Position numbers and translations under genes: made by a program. The notes below the pieces were generated by a model. It ran no database searches. It was not told the DNA's origin and saw only the letters and a program-made list of their open reading frames with translations. Source: an uncultured Candidatus Saccharibacteria bacterium (GTDB taxonomy: Bacteria > Patescibacteriota > Minisyncoccia > Phycocordibacterales > Phycocordibacteraceae). From it: a DNA stretch of 48,442 nt. Positions 1,948 through 45,979 of the stretch are shown piece after piece (the stretch's first letter is position 1; the number at the start of each line of letters is the position of its first letter). The DNA is taken from positions 1-48,442 of the forward strand of contig CAYIMJ010000001.1 of the NCBI GenBank assembly GCA_964364605.1, written 5' to 3'.

Positions 1948-2302
1948 ATAATTTATGTGTTAAGTGAGTTGTTTTGGTTAATAGTTTTTATGTGCTGCGC
2001 CGTGCGATGACTATTCTCGACCAAAAGTATCGCGCCGCGTGTATCGCGGACGCGACACACATGTGAAGCTTCGCTCCGTACTGGTATGCGCGGCAAGTGT
2101 GGACACTGGTTACATCCTGTGCACAAAAAAGTGCATAACTTTTTTCAAAAACGTGTCGAAAAAATACACGAAGTGTCTGGTATACCCCGTGAGATATCAC
2201 TTTGATCCTCCCAGTGTCCAACACTCGGTGTTGGACATGTGTATTCCGTATTTTTTCCAAGGTGAGGATTGCCACATGCATACAATGTACAAGGAGGTGC
2301 TA

Positions 2303-15925: not shown

Positions 15926-16447
15926 CTACTGGGTTGAGTCATTGTACATCTTTCGTGCACGCTCGTATGCAGCCTCTGCCGCCGAACGTCCCTCGAAGTC
16001 ACCAACTGAGACCTCTTTCTTCTGAATCTGCTTATACGTAGCGAAGAAGTGTGCTATTTCCTTGAGCACGTGCTGGTTCGCATCCTTAATATCTTTCACA
16101 TCCGCGTACCGAGGATCACCGGAGGCAACTGCAATAACTTTTTCATCTGCTTCGCCGCCATCGATCATATGCATGATGCCTACCATGCGTACCGGGACGA
16201 GAATGCCGGGTGCAAGCGGATGCGTAGTCAGCACGACAACATCAAGAGCGTCGCCATCATCCCAGAGTGTCTGCGGCACGAAGCCGTAGTCAAAAGGGTA
16301 GTCCTGCGCGCTGTGCATGACCCTGTCGAGCTTGATAACTCCTGTCTTCTTATCAATCTCGTACTTATTGTGAGAACCTTTCGGAATCTCAATGATGACA
16401 TTCACCTCTTCTTTTGTTCCCGGATCAATATCGTGCAAAAGATTCAT
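15926..16447 (-). CDS. ppa: inorganic pyrophosphatase (family I)
   Basis: VIIEIPKGSHNKYEIDK..LDRV...YPFDYGFVPQTL.DDGDALDVVVL. Confidence 0.95.
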   Translation of the reverse strand: MNLLHDIDPGTKEEVNVIIEIPKGSHNKYEIDKKTGVIKLDRVMHSAQDYPFDYGFVPQTLWDDGDALDVVVLTTHPLAPGILVPVRMVGIMHMIDGGEADEKVIAVASGDPRYADVKDIKDANQHVLKEIAHFFATYKQIQKKEVSVGDFEGRSAAEAAYERARKMYNDSTQ

Positions 16448-16526
16448 CCCGTTAGAAATTAGTTTAATAAAGCATTGCTTGTTTTATTTTACACCCCCCC
16501 CCGACAATCTCGCCATTTCTAACGGG
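16448..16526. mobile_element. family-A inverted-repeat mini-element (79 nt) abutting the ppa start codon
   Basis: Arms CCCGTTAGAAAT (16448-16459) and ATTTCTAACGGG (16515-16526). Flanked by the direct repeat ATTCAT (16442-16447 and 16527-16532), which is ATGAAT on the gene strand. Contains a C9 tract at 16494-16502. Confidence 0.75.
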
Positions 16527-16560
16527 ATTCATATGCATCGATTATACATCACTGATACTT

Positions 16561-28316: not shown

Positions 28317-28324
28317 TAATGCGT

Positions 28325-28438
28325 CCCGTTAGAAATCACGAACACGTCTATCAAAGTGATCACGAAACGTTATGGACCGCAGTAACAAAATAAAATATGA
28401 CACCCTTTATGCGACGTTCGTATTCTATTTCTAACGGG
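28325..28438. mobile_element. family-A inverted-repeat mini-element (114 nt) between the duplicated pgk start codons
   Basis: Arms at 28325-28336 and 28427-28438. Flanks are ATGCGT (28319-28324) and ATGCGC (28439-28444). Confidence 0.75.
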
Positions 28439-29599
28439 ATGCGCAGCGTCCGCGACATCCGACTATTCGAGAATATTCCGATACTCGTTCGGACGGCGCT
28501 CAATGTCCCGATTGAAAATGGGAAAGTCGTCAACGACTACCGATTACGACGCGCACTGCCAACCATTAGATTTCTTTCCGAACGAGGTGCGAAAGTCATT
28601 CTCATCAGCCACATCGGAGAGCAGGGGACTGAGACACTCGAACCGGTTGCGCAAGCTCTCGGGAAACTCATATCCCGAGTCTCGTTCTTCGGTGAGACCA
28701 TCGGGGAGCGGGCCCGAGGAGCCATACGGGAACTTTCGCCAGGAGGCATCCTGGTACTTGAAAATCTCCGCCGCAATAAAGGTGAAGTGATGAATGATCG
28801 AGCCTTCACCAAAGAACTTGCGGCGCTTGCTGACGTCTTCGTTCAAGATTCTTTTGATACTTGCCACCGTCGTCACGCCTCAATCATCGGTGTTCCTGAA
28901 TTATTACCAAGTTATGCCGGACTCCTTCTTGAGGAAGAGATCGAGGAACTTTCGGAAGCGCTCATGCCGAAGCATCCGGCGCTTGCAGTTATCGGCGGAG
29001 CGAAATTCAGCACGAAGGAAGCAGTGCTTACTACGCTTCTCAAAACATATGATCATGTGTTTGTCGGCGGAGCACTTGCCAATGACTTCCTGAAAGCGGC
29101 GGGACAAGGGGTAGGGAAGTCGCTTGTTTCAGGAGCTGACTCAGACTCTATTAAAAAACTTCTCACCAATCCTAAACTGGTATTACCCGTAGACTCGTTT
29201 GTCGTTCCAGCAACGAGCATCGGCGCTTTGAATACGAAAATGAACGCGCGCGTCGCAACTGCCGGACAAGTACGGCCCGATGAAGTCATTCTCGATCATG
29301 GTCCCGGCACTTCAGCACTCTTAGCTAACCTTGCCGAAAAAGCGAAAAATATTCTCTGGAACGGCCCCTTGGGAAATTACGAGCACGGCTTTGTAGATGC
29401 AACCAATGCTTTCGCGCGCGCGGTCGCAGACTCGGGAGCGCACTCGGTCGTCGGCGGCGGCGACACTATCGCAGCGATAGAGAACCTCGGCCTTCTTCCG
29501 CACTTTTCTTTTGTCTCGACTGGCGGCGGCGCCATGCTCGACCTCCTCGCAAAGGGAACTCTTCCCGGCATTGCAGTACTTGACAAAACACACAACTAG
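28439..29599 (+). CDS. pgk: phosphoglycerate kinase
   Basis: MRSVRDIRLFENIPILVRTALNVP..ISHIG...ENLRRNKGE..GGAKFSTK..GGGDT. The conserved N-terminus begins at ATG 28439. In-frame ATG 28397 would add the element-encoded peptide MTPFMRRSYSISNG. Confidence 0.93.
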   Translation: MRSVRDIRLFENIPILVRTALNVPIENGKVVNDYRLRRALPTIRFLSERGAKVILISHIGEQGTETLEPVAQALGKLISRVSFFGETIGERARGAIRELSPGGILVLENLRRNKGEVMNDRAFTKELAALADVFVQDSFDTCHRRHASIIGVPELLPSYAGLLLEEEIEELSEALMPKHPALAVIGGAKFSTKEAVLTTLLKTYDHVFVGGALANDFLKAAGQGVGKSLVSGADSDSIKKLLTNPKLVLPVDSFVVPATSIGALNTKMNARVATAGQVRPDEVILDHGPGTSALLANLAEKAKNILWNGPLGNYEHGFVDATNAFARAVADSGAHSVVGGGDTIAAIENLGLLPHFSFVSTGGGAMLDLLAKGTLPGIAVLDKTHN

Positions 29600-30487: not shown

Positions 30488-32284
30488 ATGTTCCCACTCC
30501 ACGATCCGCTTACTGAACCTCTACGAGCAGAACTTGCATCGTATGACGATCTCACTGCCGCGTTGCTTTCGCGCCGCGGTATCCTGACTAAAGAAGACGC
30601 TGAGAAATTTCTCAACCCCTCCTACGAAGGTCACCTATATGACCCATTCCTGATGACTGACATGAGAAAAGCCGCGGAGCGATTTGCGGCGGCGATTCTC
30701 TCGGGAGAAAAAATTGCAGTATGGAGCGACTACGATTGCGATGGTATTCCGGGTGGCGTACTCCTCCACGATTTCCTCGCGAAAGCTGGTGCGAATTTTG
30801 AAAATTATATTCCGCATCGACATGAAGAGGGGTATGGCATGAATGTGAGTGGAATTGAGAAGCTTGCAAAGAGCGGAGTGAAACTCATCGTGACAGTCGA
30901 CTCTGGTATCACCGATATCGAACCTGTTGCCCGGGCGAAAGAACTTGGCATGGACGTCATCGTAACCGATCATCATTTGCCGGGAGAAAAATTACCAGAC
31001 GCTTTTGCGGTCGTTAATCCTAATGCTCGTCCCGTTAGAGACAAGATGTTGTCAGCATCTGGCTCGCCGGAGGCGAGCGTCTCTAACGGGACAAGTGCCG
31101 ACGAAACGTATCCGTTTCGCAGTCTCTGCGGCTCAGGGGTCGCGTGGAAACTCGTCTGCGCGACTCTCGCGATTGCACCAACTCTTCGCGAGAAGGTACC
31201 CGTCGGATGGGAGAAGTGGCTCCTTGATATGGTCGGTCTCGCAACCATCGCTGACATGGTTCCGCTTGTCGATGAGAATCGCGTTCTCGCGACGTATGGA
31301 TTGAAAGTAATGCGGAAGTCGCCACGCATCGGGCTACAAAAAATGTGCCGCGGAATGCGTGTGGATCAGCGTGCGATTACCGAAGACGACGTCGGGTTCA
31401 TGATAGCCCCGAGAGTGAATGCCGCGAGCCGGATGGGGGACGCACGCGATGCGTTCCGTCTCTTCACGACGACCGATGAAAACGAAGCTGATGAACTCTC
31501 AAAGAAAATGGAGAAGGCGAACCGTCAACGGAAAGCAGAGGCGGGCGCTATCACGCGCGCGGTACACACACGACTCAAGGAACGCGGGGAGGTGCGAAGC
31601 GTCATCGCACTCGGAGATCCCGAGTGGCGCCCGGCGCTTCTCGGTCTTGTTGCAAACACGATTGCTGACGAGTATGAGCGTCCGGTATTTTTGTGGGGAA
31701 GGGAAGGGAACATGCGTCTGAAAGGATCAGTGCGGAGTGGCGGCACGACGCATATTATGGAACTCATGCGCGCGGCAGAAAAAGCATTCGTCGAATTCGG
31801 CGGACATGCGGCGGCGGGCGGTTTTGCCGTCCACGACACTGAAGTATTTTTTCTAGAAGACCGACTCGTCGAAGCACATGCAAAAATACTGGAAGGAAAA
31901 ACCGCTGAAGACAGTCTGGCGATGCGTGCCGATGCGCACATCACACCGGAAGAAGCGACGACGTCATTTCTTTTCAAAGTCGAGAAGCTCGCACCCTTCG
32001 GTCAGCAGAATGCGAAGCCAGTGTTTCTGCTTCGCGAAATTATCGTGCGAGAGATTTCACGCTTCGGAAAAGGGGAGGAGCATTTGAAATTGAAAATAAC
32101 TTCCGTCGAAGGTACTGGACGAAGTGTCGAAGCGGTTACGTTTTTCGTAAAAGGATCGATCGCCCGTGCAGCGGAGAAAATCTCTGCGGGTAGTCGCGTG
32201 AACCTACTTGCACACCTTGAGCGCGACACCTTCTCGCGCGGGAATCCGGTGCGCCTGCGACTTCTCGACATCAAATTGATATGA
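30488..32284 (+). CDS. recJ: single-stranded-DNA-specific exonuclease RecJ
   Basis: DYDCDGI, VTVDSG, VTDHH, GSGVAWKL, IADMVPL (DHH/DHHA1 motifs). Confidence 0.93.
   Translation: MFPLHDPLTEPLRAELASYDDLTAALLSRRGILTKEDAEKFLNPSYEGHLYDPFLMTDMRKAAERFAAAILSGEKIAVWSDYDCDGIPGGVLLHDFLAKAGANFENYIPHRHEEGYGMNVSGIEKLAKSGVKLIVTVDSGITDIEPVARAKELGMDVIVTDHHLPGEKLPDAFAVVNPNARPVRDKMLSASGSPEASVSNGTSADETYPFRSLCGSGVAWKLVCATLAIAPTLREKVPVGWEKWLLDMVGLATIADMVPLVDENRVLATYGLKVMRKSPRIGLQKMCRGMRVDQRAITEDDVGFMIAPRVNAASRMGDARDAFRLFTTTDENEADELSKKMEKANRQRKAEAGAITRAVHTRLKERGEVRSVIALGDPEWRPALLGLVANTIADEYERPVFLWGREGNMRLKGSVRSGGTTHIMELMRAAEKAFVEFGGHAAAGGFAVHDTEVFFLEDRLVEAHAKILEGKTAEDSLAMRADAHITPEEATTSFLFKVEKLAPFGQQNAKPVFLLREIIVREISRFGKGEEHLKLKITSVEGTGRSVEAVTFFVKGSIARAAEKISAGSRVNLLAHLERDTFSRGNPVRLRLLDIKLI
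31029..31092. mobile_element. family-A variant inverted-repeat element inserted in-frame in recJ
   Basis: Arms GTCCCGTTAGAGAC (31029-31042) and GTCTCTAACGGGAC (31079-31092). The core 31031-31090 is 60 nt (20 codons), encoding PVRDKMLSASGSPEASVSNG between the conserved NPNAR and YPF..L.GSGVA. There is an inner hairpin gctcgcc-gga-ggcgagc. Confidence 0.7.
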
Positions 32285-34365: not shown

Positions 34366-35901
34366 ATGAGCTATCTCATCGCCATCGTGTCGGGATTCGC
34401 GAGCGGAGTATTTCTCCGCTCGGTTTTTAGTTTTGGATGGCCAGTAATCTGTTTCGTACTTTTGCTCGCCACGATTCTTTTTGCAGTCCCGAGAGTACTT
34501 GCCGTTCATCCTGCGTACACGCTTGCCCCGTTAGAAATCAGATTTCTAACGGGGCTTGGCGCGGCTTTCTGTATTTTTCTTGCCCTCGGTATGGTGCGAA
34601 GCTCACTCGCCGAGACTCCCTTGCCCGACATCTTCGCAAAAGATCTGCGACATCGCGTTTCCTACGAAGGAGTCATTGTCTCCGATCCTGATGTGCGCGA
34701 CGCGAATCAACGCGTTGAAATTCGTGTGTCAGAAAAAGGTGAGTCGACGACTATGCTCGCGGTCGCACCGCGATATCCGAGAGTTATGGTTGGTGATCGT
34801 GTCTATGTCTCAGGCACACTTCTTGTCCCTGAAGCATTTCTCGATGAGAACGGTCGTGTCTTTCGTTATGATAAATATTTGGAGCGCAGTGGTGTGCGTT
34901 TCATTCTAAACTTTGCATATCTGCGTGTCATCGAGAAAGCTCCTTGGTATTCGATACCAGCTTTACTCGCACGAATAAAACATTCATTCCTCGACGGCCT
35001 CTCGACCACACTGCCTGAACCGTATGCCTCACTTGCTGGCGGTGTCGTGATAGGAGGGAAGTCCGGTCTCGGAAGCGAGCTCAAAGAGGTATTCATTCGC
35101 TCAGGTCTCGTACAGATAATTGTTCTGTCCGGCTATAACGTCATGATCGTTGCTGAGTGGGTCATGGCCGCGCTCACATTTACCAAGCTCAGGAAGCGGT
35201 GGGCGGCAGTGGCGGGTGCGTTTGCAATCCTTATCTTCATCGGTGTCGCAGGAGCTTCCGCGACAGCACTTCGCGCCGCGCTCATGGCATTCATCGCACT
35301 CTATGCGCGAGCAACCGGCCGCACGTATGCAGCTGGTCGCGCATTACTGCTCGTCGTATTTCTCATGCTCGTGTGGAATTCTCTCTATCTCGTTTTTGAT
35401 CCAGGCTTCGGACTCTCGGTAACCGCAACCGCAGGACTCATCTGGCTGGCGCCCCTCATCGAAATCATATTTGCTTTCATGAAAAACGCATTCTGGAAGA
35501 ATGCAATTGCGACAACTCTCGCTGCACAAATCGCTGTCCTACCGCTCCTTTTATATGACACTGGGAACCTATCGCTCGTCGCGCTCCCTGCGAACTTGCT
35601 CGTGATGCCTGTTGTGCCTATCGCGATGGGACTCTCCGCATTTGCCGGTTTCGCAGGAATTATTTTCGGAACATTCGCCCCCATGTTTGCCGTCATGCTT
35701 GCACTGCCGGCATACCTTGCGAATGCGTATCTGATATTCATCGCGCAAGAATCTGCCGCACTGCCTTTTGCGGCTTTTACGCTTCCGTTATTCCCGTTCT
35801 GGCTTGTACTCGCTGCCTACGCGGCACTTATTTATTTCGCTTCATCAAAACGCTTCTCGACAACGCTCCAGTTGAGATTCGCAAAAAAGGCGTCAACATA
35901 A
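34366..35901 (+). CDS. comEC: ComEC/Rec2 competence channel protein (DUF4131 + Competence domains, no MBL domain)
   Basis: OB-like DUF4131 region (YEGVIVSDPDVRDANQRVEIRV..GDRVYVSGTL), then a polytopic region with GLVQIIVLSGYNV, GASATALRAALMA. Confidence 0.85.
   Translation: MSYLIAIVSGFASGVFLRSVFSFGWPVICFVLLLATILFAVPRVLAVHPAYTLAPLEIRFLTGLGAAFCIFLALGMVRSSLAETPLPDIFAKDLRHRVSYEGVIVSDPDVRDANQRVEIRVSEKGESTTMLAVAPRYPRVMVGDRVYVSGTLLVPEAFLDENGRVFRYDKYLERSGVRFILNFAYLRVIEKAPWYSIPALLARIKHSFLDGLSTTLPEPYASLAGGVVIGGKSGLGSELKEVFIRSGLVQIIVLSGYNVMIVAEWVMAALTFTKLRKRWAAVAGAFAILIFIGVAGASATALRAALMAFIALYARATGRTYAAGRALLLVVFLMLVWNSLYLVFDPGFGLSVTATAGLIWLAPLIEIIFAFMKNAFWKNAIATTLAAQIAVLPLLLYDTGNLSLVALPANLLVMPVVPIAMGLSAFAGFAGIIFGTFAPMFAVMLALPAYLANAYLIFIAQESAALPFAAFTLPLFPFWLVLAAYAALIYFASSKRFSTTLQLRFAKKAST
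34526..34554. mobile_element. minimal family-A element (two arms plus 3-nt loop) inserted in-frame in comEC
   Basis: CCCCGTTAGAAAT-cag-ATTTCTAACGGGG, flanked by the direct repeat CTTG (34522-34525 and 34555-34558). Translated as PLEIRFLTG. Confidence 0.75.
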
Positions 35902-39371: not shown

Positions 39372-39385
39372 TGCGATATATGGAT

Positions 39386-39497
39386 CCCGTTAGAAATCGC
39401 GAACGCTGCAATCGAGGAATGGATCCAATTATAAGCTCTAATCGGATAGGGTTCGGCTGCACCGCATCTGGTGTGTCCGCGCCCTATTTCTAACGGG
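39386..39497. mobile_element. family-A inverted-repeat mini-element (112 nt) between duplicated start codons of the DUF3467 gene
   Basis: Arms at 39386-39397 and 39486-39497. Flanks are ATGGAT (39380-39385) and ATGGAC (39498-39503). Confidence 0.75.
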
Positions 39498-39755
39498 ATG
39501 GACTTCAACAAAATCCCCAAGCAATTCTGTGAAAATGTCGTCGCAGGGCACTCCGAAGAAAATTTCGTCATGATTATGAGCGTCGGCGAAACAGCCAATG
39601 CCTACGCACTCACGCCGCCACACATGAAGCGACTCGTGCAGAGCCTCAATCATCAAGTCGAGGAGTATGAGAAAAAGTTTGGCCCTATTCAGGCAAAGTG
39701 GACCCCGGGCATCGAAAGTCCCCTCCAATCGAAAGACATCCGGGGCGATAAGTAA
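39498..39755 (+). CDS. DUF3467 family protein
   Basis: MDFNKIPKQFCENVVAGHSEENFVMIM......LTPPHMKRLVQSLNHQVEEYEKKFGPI fits the DUF3467 pattern. Confidence 0.75.
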   Translation: MDFNKIPKQFCENVVAGHSEENFVMIMSVGETANAYALTPPHMKRLVQSLNHQVEEYEKKFGPIQAKWTPGIESPLQSKDIRGDK

Positions 39756-45896: not shown

Positions 45897-45898
45897 GT

Positions 45899-45976
45899 CC
45901 CGTTAGAAATTCAAAACAATATATGGGTATTAAAAATATGTCGCAACAGGAGCACTCTGACTCTATTTCTAATGGG
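45899..45976. mobile_element. family-A inverted-repeat mini-element (78 nt, open in frame) at the 5' end of the pilin-like gene
   Basis: Arms CCCGTTAGAAAT (45899-45910) and ATTTCTAATGGG (45965-45976). ATGAGT lies upstream and GTGATGA downstream. Confidence 0.7.
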
Positions 45977-45979
45977 GTG

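Follow-up and report, generated by a model that had tools for sequence, protein, structure and literature searches.

The window analysed here is a stretch of 48,442 nucleotides (nt) from an uncultured Candidatus Saccharibacteria bacterium (assembly GCA_964364605.1, contig CAYIMJ010000001.1), and within its comEC gene, between two copies of CTTG, lies a 29-nt palindrome (Table 1). Sequence comparison establishes that this palindrome was inserted with duplication of 4 bp of its target, that insertion at the same comEC site has recurred in other genomes, that the reading frame is left intact, and that the arms of the palindrome are common to longer copies coding for a GIY-YIG nuclease. We consider it probable that the palindrome records a real insertion, the inserted element being the minimal form, free of cargo, of a Patescibacteria family of mobile elements bounded by hairpins. 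By analogy with a published nuclease system, such an arms-only hairpin may be mobilised by the GIY-YIG nuclease of its longer relatives.

The source genome (G000) comprises 738 kb in 96 contigs with 49.7% G+C, and the nearest relatives of its ComEC come from metagenome-assembled genomes (MAGs) labelled Candidatus Kaiserbacteria, Parcubacteria or Paceibacterota.

Insertion of a 29-nt palindrome into comEC with duplication of CTTG

A preliminary description of the window, made from the letters alone, had reported a short palindromic copy inside comEC, and the palindrome and its CTTG flanks are as described there, in the layout acg-CTTG-29-mer-CTTG-gcg. An inverted-repeat search returned 15-nt arms that are 100% complementary and 1 nt apart. 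The window contains 13 occurrences of a 13-mer of the arm, with up to 2 mismatches allowed; 1.06 are expected, and 0 of 100 shuffles reach the observed number. The predicted folding energy of the hairpin is -18.6 kcal/mol (z -7.7) for single-stranded DNA (ssDNA); for RNA in its context it is -32.2 kcal/mol (z -4.9), and in both forms the hairpin is stable. A search of the whole window against Rfam at gathering thresholds returned four tRNAs only, with no known RNA family matching the palindrome.

To place the insertion we compared orthologues, having located ComEC in 37 of 41 related genomes. The segment APLEIRFLTGL is missing from the alignment in every one of 19 same-genus orthologues and in 28 of 29 orthologues from public MAGs; the two sets overlap in part, so that orthologues without the insert come to about 40 in total. 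This bears out the suggestion in the preliminary description that the 11 residues are an indel, and the contrary pattern, conservation of these residues in orthologues of genomes that lack the family, was looked for and not seen. Deletion of the 33 nt yields ...HPAYTLG|AAFCIFLALGM, to be compared with the consensus ...LAYSLG|AVFCIFVALGM, and thereby regains the conserved motif AY(S/T)LG|A(V/A)F; one spare residue remains after the deletion, in a loop of variable length.

The DNA of the orthologues reads TAC TCG CTT GGC GCG, with CTTG once only, and when aligned to the window leaves a clean gap of 33 nt that coincides with the palindrome. An empty site in this comEC would read ...ACGCTTGGCGCGG..., the target being ACG|CTTG|GCG. 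A first MAFFT protein alignment had opened its 12-column gap upstream of the palindrome, 12 residues too early, owing to the duplicated Leu-Gly; we rejected this placement as an artefact since the alignment after deletion and the DNA alignment both place the gap at the palindrome. Orthologues without exactly these 33 nt, and with a single CTTG, thus show at the level of sequence that the comEC palindrome is an insertion which duplicated CTTG, in agreement with the 4-bp duplication read from the flanks in the preliminary description.

We also considered duplications of 2, 5 or 6 bp and rejected them, because a constant C next to the left repeat and a constant G before the right repeat persist even at differing targets. 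Since these two bases are constant across copies, both belong to the element, which is therefore 29 nt long with a duplication of 4 bp. Apparent repeats of 5–6 nt result from target preference, and where the target departs from the consensus, as in ComEC (GCTTGG) and in a relative of the element in the genome G059 (ACTCG), the constant C or G is retained as part of the element. A 5-bp duplication is further contradicted by the G059 copy, whose fifth position shows A against G, and a 2-bp duplication for copies at start codons by the covariation of position 14 with the downstream flank.

The host gene appears to have borne the insertion well. Its product, a protein of 511 amino acids (aa), matches the Pfam families Competence (6.7e-39) and DUF4131 (1e-10), which identifies it as ComEC; it retains all columns that are invariant among 25 orthologues, and its dN/dS against five orthologues is 0.11–0.14. 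The 33 nt are in frame and the open reading frame (ORF) is whole, as the preliminary description had maintained, and comEC remains intact and conserved and looks functional. An AlphaFold model of the protein (mean pLDDT 68) has helices at residues 2–20, 25–45 and 55–81, with coil at 46–54, followed by a beta-rich domain. The insert falls at the end of the loop between transmembrane (TM) helices 2 and 3 and at the start of helix 3, where pLDDT is below 50, so the placement is indicative; at that low local confidence, the model agrees with the earlier assignment of the residues to a position between N-terminal TM helices, and suggests that the 11 residues lengthen a short loop between helices 2 and 3. 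Most likely the insertion does nothing for the host and is selfish DNA, surviving because this position in comEC tolerates extra residues.

Larger changes were seen at the comEC 5' end of other genomes. In L089 (JAJYQV010000018.1, about 1480–2400) it is broken by a ~0.8-kb insert, within which an ORF runs on the reverse strand, and in L102/L103 (JAKAJJ01/JAKAGD01, 1501–1760) an insert of about 190 nt is present. In all of these an intact second copy of the first 20–25 comEC codons follows the insert, and the duplicated N-terminal fragment lies upstream.

Arms-only copies and their nuclease-coding relatives

Searching 222 genomes of the genus for the pattern returned 29 arms-only copies in 14 of them, and a reversed control pattern gave 0 matches. 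Of the 29 copies, 27 repeat the architecture of the comEC copy (arms of 14 nt, ends C...G and centre C-N-G), with a central base that varies, and in every arms-only copy a C stands to the left of CCCG and a G to the right of CGGG. Perfect 4-nt direct repeats flank 19 of the 27, compared to 8% in a control in which the flanks of different copies were paired, which adds to the case for a 4-bp duplication in comEC. Empty sites reconstructed from these copies have the symmetric target consensus G|CNNG|C; after symmetrisation, G occupies position -1 in 28/38, C the first and G the fourth position of the duplication in 32/38 each, and C the position after it in 28/38. The preliminary description had taken the arms to be the unit that is propagated and had called for a search for further arms-only copies and their frames; as far as can be read from sequence the proposal stands, given copies at varied sites in 14 genomes with a target consensus of their own.

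The net gain of an arms-only insertion is always 33 nt (29 + 4), so the reading frame is kept at any insertion phase. Translated, the arms give PVRNxISNG, PLEIxFLTG or a stop (CC CGT TAG), leaving two of the three phases stop-free, and together with the 33-nt gain this accounts for the many copies that lie in frame within long genes, in several genomes within ORFs of 200–1000 aa.

Between diverged genomes, arms-only copies are in some cases found at orthologous positions. L065 (G052), L067 (G198), L069 (G073) and L070 (G226) each carry one at position ~1501, at codon 3 of a ~232-aa gene that is orthologous among them, and the central base differs between genomes, being read as Q or L (CAG versus CTG); a palindrome flipped between genomes at one site suggests turnover or inversion. 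A separate variant at 782–810 of L157 (G084:C19) has other arms, CCCCGTTAGAGAG-ATG-CTCTCTAACGGGG, between CGAG/CGAG flanks, so 29-nt minimal forms exist in other arm subfamilies too.

Longer members of the family are numerous in the source genome, which contains about 23 arm pairs, nearly all lying exactly on a start codon in the layout ATGNN-T-CCCGTTAGAAAT...ATTTCTAACGGG-ATGNN-gene. Among these start-codon copies the orientation of the interior relative to the gene is constant. They fall into size classes of about 79 nt and 98–119 nt, and variants of the arms covary on both sides (AGAAGT/ACTTCT, AGAGAT/ATCTCT, ACAAAT/ATTTGT and AGAGGT/ACCTCT). Besides the comEC copy, three copies of 60 nt and one of 78 nt are intragenic and in frame, the 78-nt copy lying in a 693-aa ORF between duplicated CTAG. 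The comEC copy had been described as the only one with flanking repeats that is not at an ATG; this is true within the window and fails genome-wide, where C26:6154-6231 (CTAG/CTAG) and C19:1285-1383 (TATA/TATA) are further instances. A role as DNA-uptake sequence was rejected, as about 46 arms per 738 kb, always paired, are far too few.

At the start of pgk, a family copy sits at exactly the same place in the source genome (window 28325-28438) and in G005 (G005:C8:42045-42160), an occupied site that is therefore common to species whose Pgk proteins are 80% identical. A second palindromic family, with arms CCCGTGAGATAT and GTATAC-type flanks, is present at window 2185-2197, C19:1285-1383, C2:14184-14240 and C57:1648-1739, and TATA is duplicated at C19:1285.

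Two copies in the genome are full-length, spanning about 275 nt (C20:4087-4361 and C8:6252-6529), and are filled end to end by ORFs of 94 and 95 aa. Both proteins match Pfam GIY-YIG over residues 9–77 (1e-16 for C20, 3.6e-14 for C8), with no further domain above the cut-off. Their ORFs begin in the left arm (ATG AAT CCC GTT AGA...), and that of C20 ends in the right arm (...CTA ACG GGA TGA), where C8 has GTA in place of GGA, such that each protein has the arms themselves as its first and last codons and the stop codon overlaps the ATG of the host gene. These arms differ from those of the comEC copy at 1–2 of 12 nt. Compared with NCBIfam, the nuclease has sub-threshold matches only, to group I intron endonucleases.

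The association extends well beyond this genome. Elsewhere in the phylum, in further families and classes, arms of the CCCGTTAGAG type bracket GIY-YIG genes at a span of 270–290 nt, and 118 of 301 genomes have a homologue of the nuclease at E <= 1e-12. Further arm families with the ATG-duplicating layout are present in the genus, and at its loci L037, L039, L034, L036 and L038 small GIY-YIG genes lie within unrelated, ATG-duplicating arm families, with arms such as CCAGTAGGACAACTTCGGAT and CCCTGTTAAAT. At L123 (G412), in another genus, an 11-nt duplication, ATGGCCGCTGA, replaces the usual 4–5 nt.

Table 1. Coordinates of the comEC insertion, other family copies and Y1_Tnp ORFs; positions are those of the window, except for the prefixed coordinates in the last row.
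Feature	Position	Strand	Details	Basis
Arms-only element	34526..34554	.	29-nt perfect palindrome	Sequence reading and inverted-repeat search
Left arm	34526-34539		14 nt, CCCCGTTAGAAATC	
Central base	34540		A	
Right arm	34541-34554		14 nt, GATTTCTAACGGGG	
Left CTTG	34522..34525	.	4-bp target-site duplication	Single CTTG in orthologues
Right CTTG	34555..34558	.	4-bp target-site duplication	Single CTTG in orthologues
Net insertion	34525..34557	+	33 nt / 11 codons, ComEC residues 54-64, APLEIRFLTGL	Gap in orthologues without the element
Host gene comEC	34366..35901	+	Intact 511-aa ORF, Competence and DUF4131	Pfam
Family copy	16447..16527	-	79-nt core, exactly at gene start, ATGAA duplicated	
Family copy	28324..28439	+	114-nt core, pgk start, ATGCG duplicated	
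60-nt variant	31031..31090	+	Arms CCCGTTAGAGAC, in frame in a 598-614-aa ORF	
Family copy	39385..39498	+	112-nt core, gene start, ATGGA duplicated	
Family copy	45898..45977	+	78-nt core, gene start, open in frame with downstream gene	
Y1_Tnp ORFs	C63:517-855, C41:4641-4868, C11:1554-1787, C26:2951-3214, C2:7143-7370, C17:11118-11306			

Repeated occupation of the comEC site and the origin of the hairpin

The same 33 nt, identical at 33 of 33 positions, stand at the same comEC codon of a second genome, G226 (...VYSL APLEIRFLTGL GAIF...). The two genomes are well separated, with 63% identity in ComEC, 72% in Pgk and a synonymous divergence (dS) of about 2. Identity of their flanks is 58% upstream, against 57% for other orthologues, and 57% downstream, against up to 75% for others; being no higher than elsewhere, it indicates that there is no recent conversion tract, and we rejected homing with co-conversion from G226 on these grounds. 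Three genomes closer to G000, namely G014, G005 and G017 (ComEC 73–78% and Pgk 73–80% identical), carry 5–17 arm pairs of the family each elsewhere and have an empty comEC site. The third occupant, in G059 (JBAZXD01), is a 62-nt relative at the same site with arms CCCCATTAGAGAT/ATCTCTAACGGGG and CTCG duplicated.

In the ComEC tree, G059 falls in a distant, well-supported clade, and forcing the three carriers into a single clade is 280 log-likelihood units worse (p-AU 3.65e-69). Rejection of this clade implies at least two independent insertions, which makes the comEC site a hotspot. A sister relationship of G000 and G226 cannot be rejected (p-AU 0.447); a third independent insertion is nonetheless likely, in view of the perfect identity of the insert set against flanks at 57–58% and a dS of about 2, the alternative being constraint on the hairpin. 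In total, 3 of 222 genomes have any insertion at the comEC site. No left junction of the comEC type was found in comEC in further genomes of the genus, and other candidates there, with 1 mismatch to the left junction, proved to be located outside comEC and were rejected.

The presence of a 62-nt member at exactly this site in G059 raises the question of whether the 29-mer is the footprint of a longer member whose interior was deleted by excision or slippage, and not a unit that transposes by itself; hairpins are generally known to favour internal deletion through replication slippage. We regard this as very unlikely, as the 27 arms-only copies of one exact structure lie at varied loci in 14 genomes and have a target consensus of their own, and the CCCCATTAGAGAT arms of G059 differ from those in comEC. 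Moreover, the ends of the long copies are T...A and their interior is asymmetric, with C after the left arm and T before the right arm, from which a simple deletion would not yield the 29-nt palindrome.

How an arms-only insertion might move is suggested by the Ssn nucleases (Chenal et al., Nat Commun 2025, PMC11893778), single-domain GIY-YIG enzymes of 94 aa whose genes are flanked by hairpin repeats of 20–50 nt, in a layout that their authors liken to an insertion sequence. Ssn binds its hairpin as ssDNA only and cuts alongside it, tolerating any loop or a split hairpin (PMC11893778). By analogy, the hairpin described here would serve in cis as the structure that the nuclease of the family recognises, and a full-length member would be this hairpin with the 94-aa GIY-YIG gene placed in its loop; the nuclease would bind to it as ssDNA, with cleavage next to the hairpin. 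Since the Ssn stem is recognised whatever the loop, mobilisation in trans would be open to arms-only copies. Judging from the symmetry of the target, G|CNNG|C, and from the 4-bp duplication, the target may be cut with a stagger and the gaps then filled in.

A stronger version of this reading, which we put forward tentatively and hold to be rather doubtful, is that the 29-nt hairpin is a complete mobile unit and the smallest transposable element so far, needing nothing in cis beyond its two 14-nt arms and moved in trans by an Ssn-like GIY-YIG nuclease through an ssDNA hairpin into symmetric G|CNNG|C sites with 4-bp duplication; its choice of site would be so specific that one comEC codon is hit repeatedly in different species. 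Several points weigh against a recent insertion driven by the nuclease. To our knowledge, a nuclease alone cannot join DNA, and we know of no GIY-YIG enzyme established as a transposase. The best solved relatives of the nuclease are UPF0213 proteins, at E 3e-4 only. Arms-only copies have C...G ends, compared to T...A in long copies, along with a symmetric C-N-G centre, and their target is G|CNNG|C as opposed to A|TGNN at start codons for long copies, so that they could form a lineage of their own, mobilised by some other activity. There are also 6–7 ORFs of the Y1_Tnp (HUH) type in the genome, though none with arms nearby, and perfect identity across deeply diverged genomes could come from selection on the hairpin, not recent insertion.

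Selection of that kind is the core of another explanation, in which the hairpin is a long-lived selected site similar to the SRM/NTS repeats, kept for an Ssn-type nuclease that, for example, cuts incoming ssDNA at this locus during natural transformation, with identity maintained by purifying selection or homogenisation. Neisseria pairs of Ssn and NTS do modulate transformation (PMC11893778), and the complete identity of the 33 nt between G000 and G226 within much more diverged flanks, the possibility of shared descent left by the p-AU of 0.447, and the further arms-only copies at orthologous sites in diverged genomes are all consistent with it. We nevertheless consider this unlikely: the comEC site is occupied in so few genomes, closer relatives that bear the family have it empty, and the third genome with an insertion there, from a distant clade, has a different member of the family. 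The CAG/CTG flips at orthologous copies fit turnover better than conservation, and NTS repeats are rarely intragenic (2%, PMC11893778).

The HUH proteins offer a last route, by which RAYT-like Y1_Tnp enzymes of the genome would mobilise the hairpins in the way that repetitive extragenic palindromes (REPs) and REPINs are mobilised, with the GIY-YIG genes as passengers. Six Y1_Tnp ORFs (IS200-like/RAYT-like, 220–245 aa) score above the Pfam cut-off in the genome, and REPs are described (PMC3733652; PMC11893778) as 20–40-nt palindromes mobilised from ssDNA. Within 400 nt of seven Y1_Tnp loci, though, no arms of the CCGT(T/G)AGA type were found, and we rejected a RAYT/REP association for want of arms near these genes. 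Arms bracket GIY-YIG ORFs to the base in many genomes, and REPs differ in lying outside genes, in bearing GTAG/CGTC tags, which are lacking here, and in inserting without target duplication. This route therefore seems to us extremely improbable.

Significance and comparison with known systems

New here are the arms-only class with its defining size, target and duplication, the arithmetic behind its neutrality to the reading frame, and the repeated use of one comEC codon. Beyond the preliminary description, the analysis adds the link to a GIY-YIG gene, the recurrence at the comEC site in other genomes, and the other repeat-flanked copies away from an ATG. Arms-only copies set an upper bound on what the element family requires in cis: as two 14-nt arms alone still show a duplication, a target consensus of their own and dozens of sites, the hairpin stem would be the functional unit. 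They also provide a concrete substrate for asking whether small GIY-YIG nucleases of the Ssn type drive DNA mobility, a question raised by the Ssn authors. Such elements can be accommodated in compact genomes of about 90% coding DNA, most intragenic insertions being simple 11-residue additions owing to the 33-nt net gain and the two stop-free phases of the arms, and the repeated hits at one comEC codon are a natural marker of the target choice of the family. Were the 29-nt unit truly self-sufficient, a bare GIY-YIG nuclease would power a new class of DNA transposition in prokaryotes, and the Ssn/SRM systems would have a selfish origin.

Our literature search found no description of bacterial GIY-YIG elements with inverted repeats and target duplications; non-intron GIY-YIG insertions have been noted in rRNA genes of the candidate phyla radiation (PMC11270868). 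In their effect on genes, the arms-only copies are similar to the Rickettsia palindromic elements (Ogata et al. 2000, as reviewed in PMC10969869), which are palindromes lying in frame in unrelated genes, adding a peptide while the gene is kept. Those elements are about 100–150 bp long and belong to Rickettsia-specific sequence families with a conserved peptide, whereas ours are 29 nt long and unrelated in sequence and phylum. No nuclease gene lies between the arms of the Rickettsia elements, in contrast to the family described here, in which there is also a clear 4-bp duplication and a frame-neutral gain of 33 nt.

Miniature inverted-repeat transposable elements, such as the Correia element of Neisseria (PMC10969869), likewise have terminal inverted repeats (here perfect 14-nt arms), a target duplication and an empty site, are non-coding, and have ends in common with a larger coding element of the same genome, as the comEC arms do with the GIY-YIG copies at 10–11 of 12 nt. 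Such elements usually measure about 50–500 bp with internal sequence, a size well above that of a 29-nt palindrome with a single base between its arms, and the presumed autonomous partner in our case is a bare GIY-YIG nuclease as opposed to a DDE, HUH, serine or tyrosine transposase. REPs and REPINs are closer in size, being 20–40-nt palindromes spread through a genome and thought to move as single-stranded hairpins with one dedicated small enzyme; unlike the comEC copy, which is intragenic and untagged, REPs are extragenic, have GTAG/CGTC tags and no target duplication, and flank an HUH gene.

The closest published system is that of the Ssn nucleases with their SRM/NTS hairpin repeats. The nuclease here is likewise a single-domain GIY-YIG protein of 94 or 95 aa, close to the ~94 aa of Ssn and within the ~90–100 aa expected of that group, and its gene is bracketed by hairpin-forming inverted repeats that are also dispersed without a gene, as about 23 arm pairs in the genome and 29 arms-only copies in the genus. 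Because the loop of the Ssn hairpin is dispensable, the 29-nt arms-only and 275-nt gene-bearing copies could be equivalent substrates. The two systems differ in that the gene here lies inside one split hairpin, whose arms are its first and last codons, whereas an Ssn gene is flanked by complete hairpins; the arm sequence is unrelated to NTS. The long copies here lie on start codons and the arms-only copies are often intragenic and in frame, compared to 2% of NTS repeats that are intragenic, and the 4-bp duplications, together with empty sites in relatives, give direct evidence of insertion.

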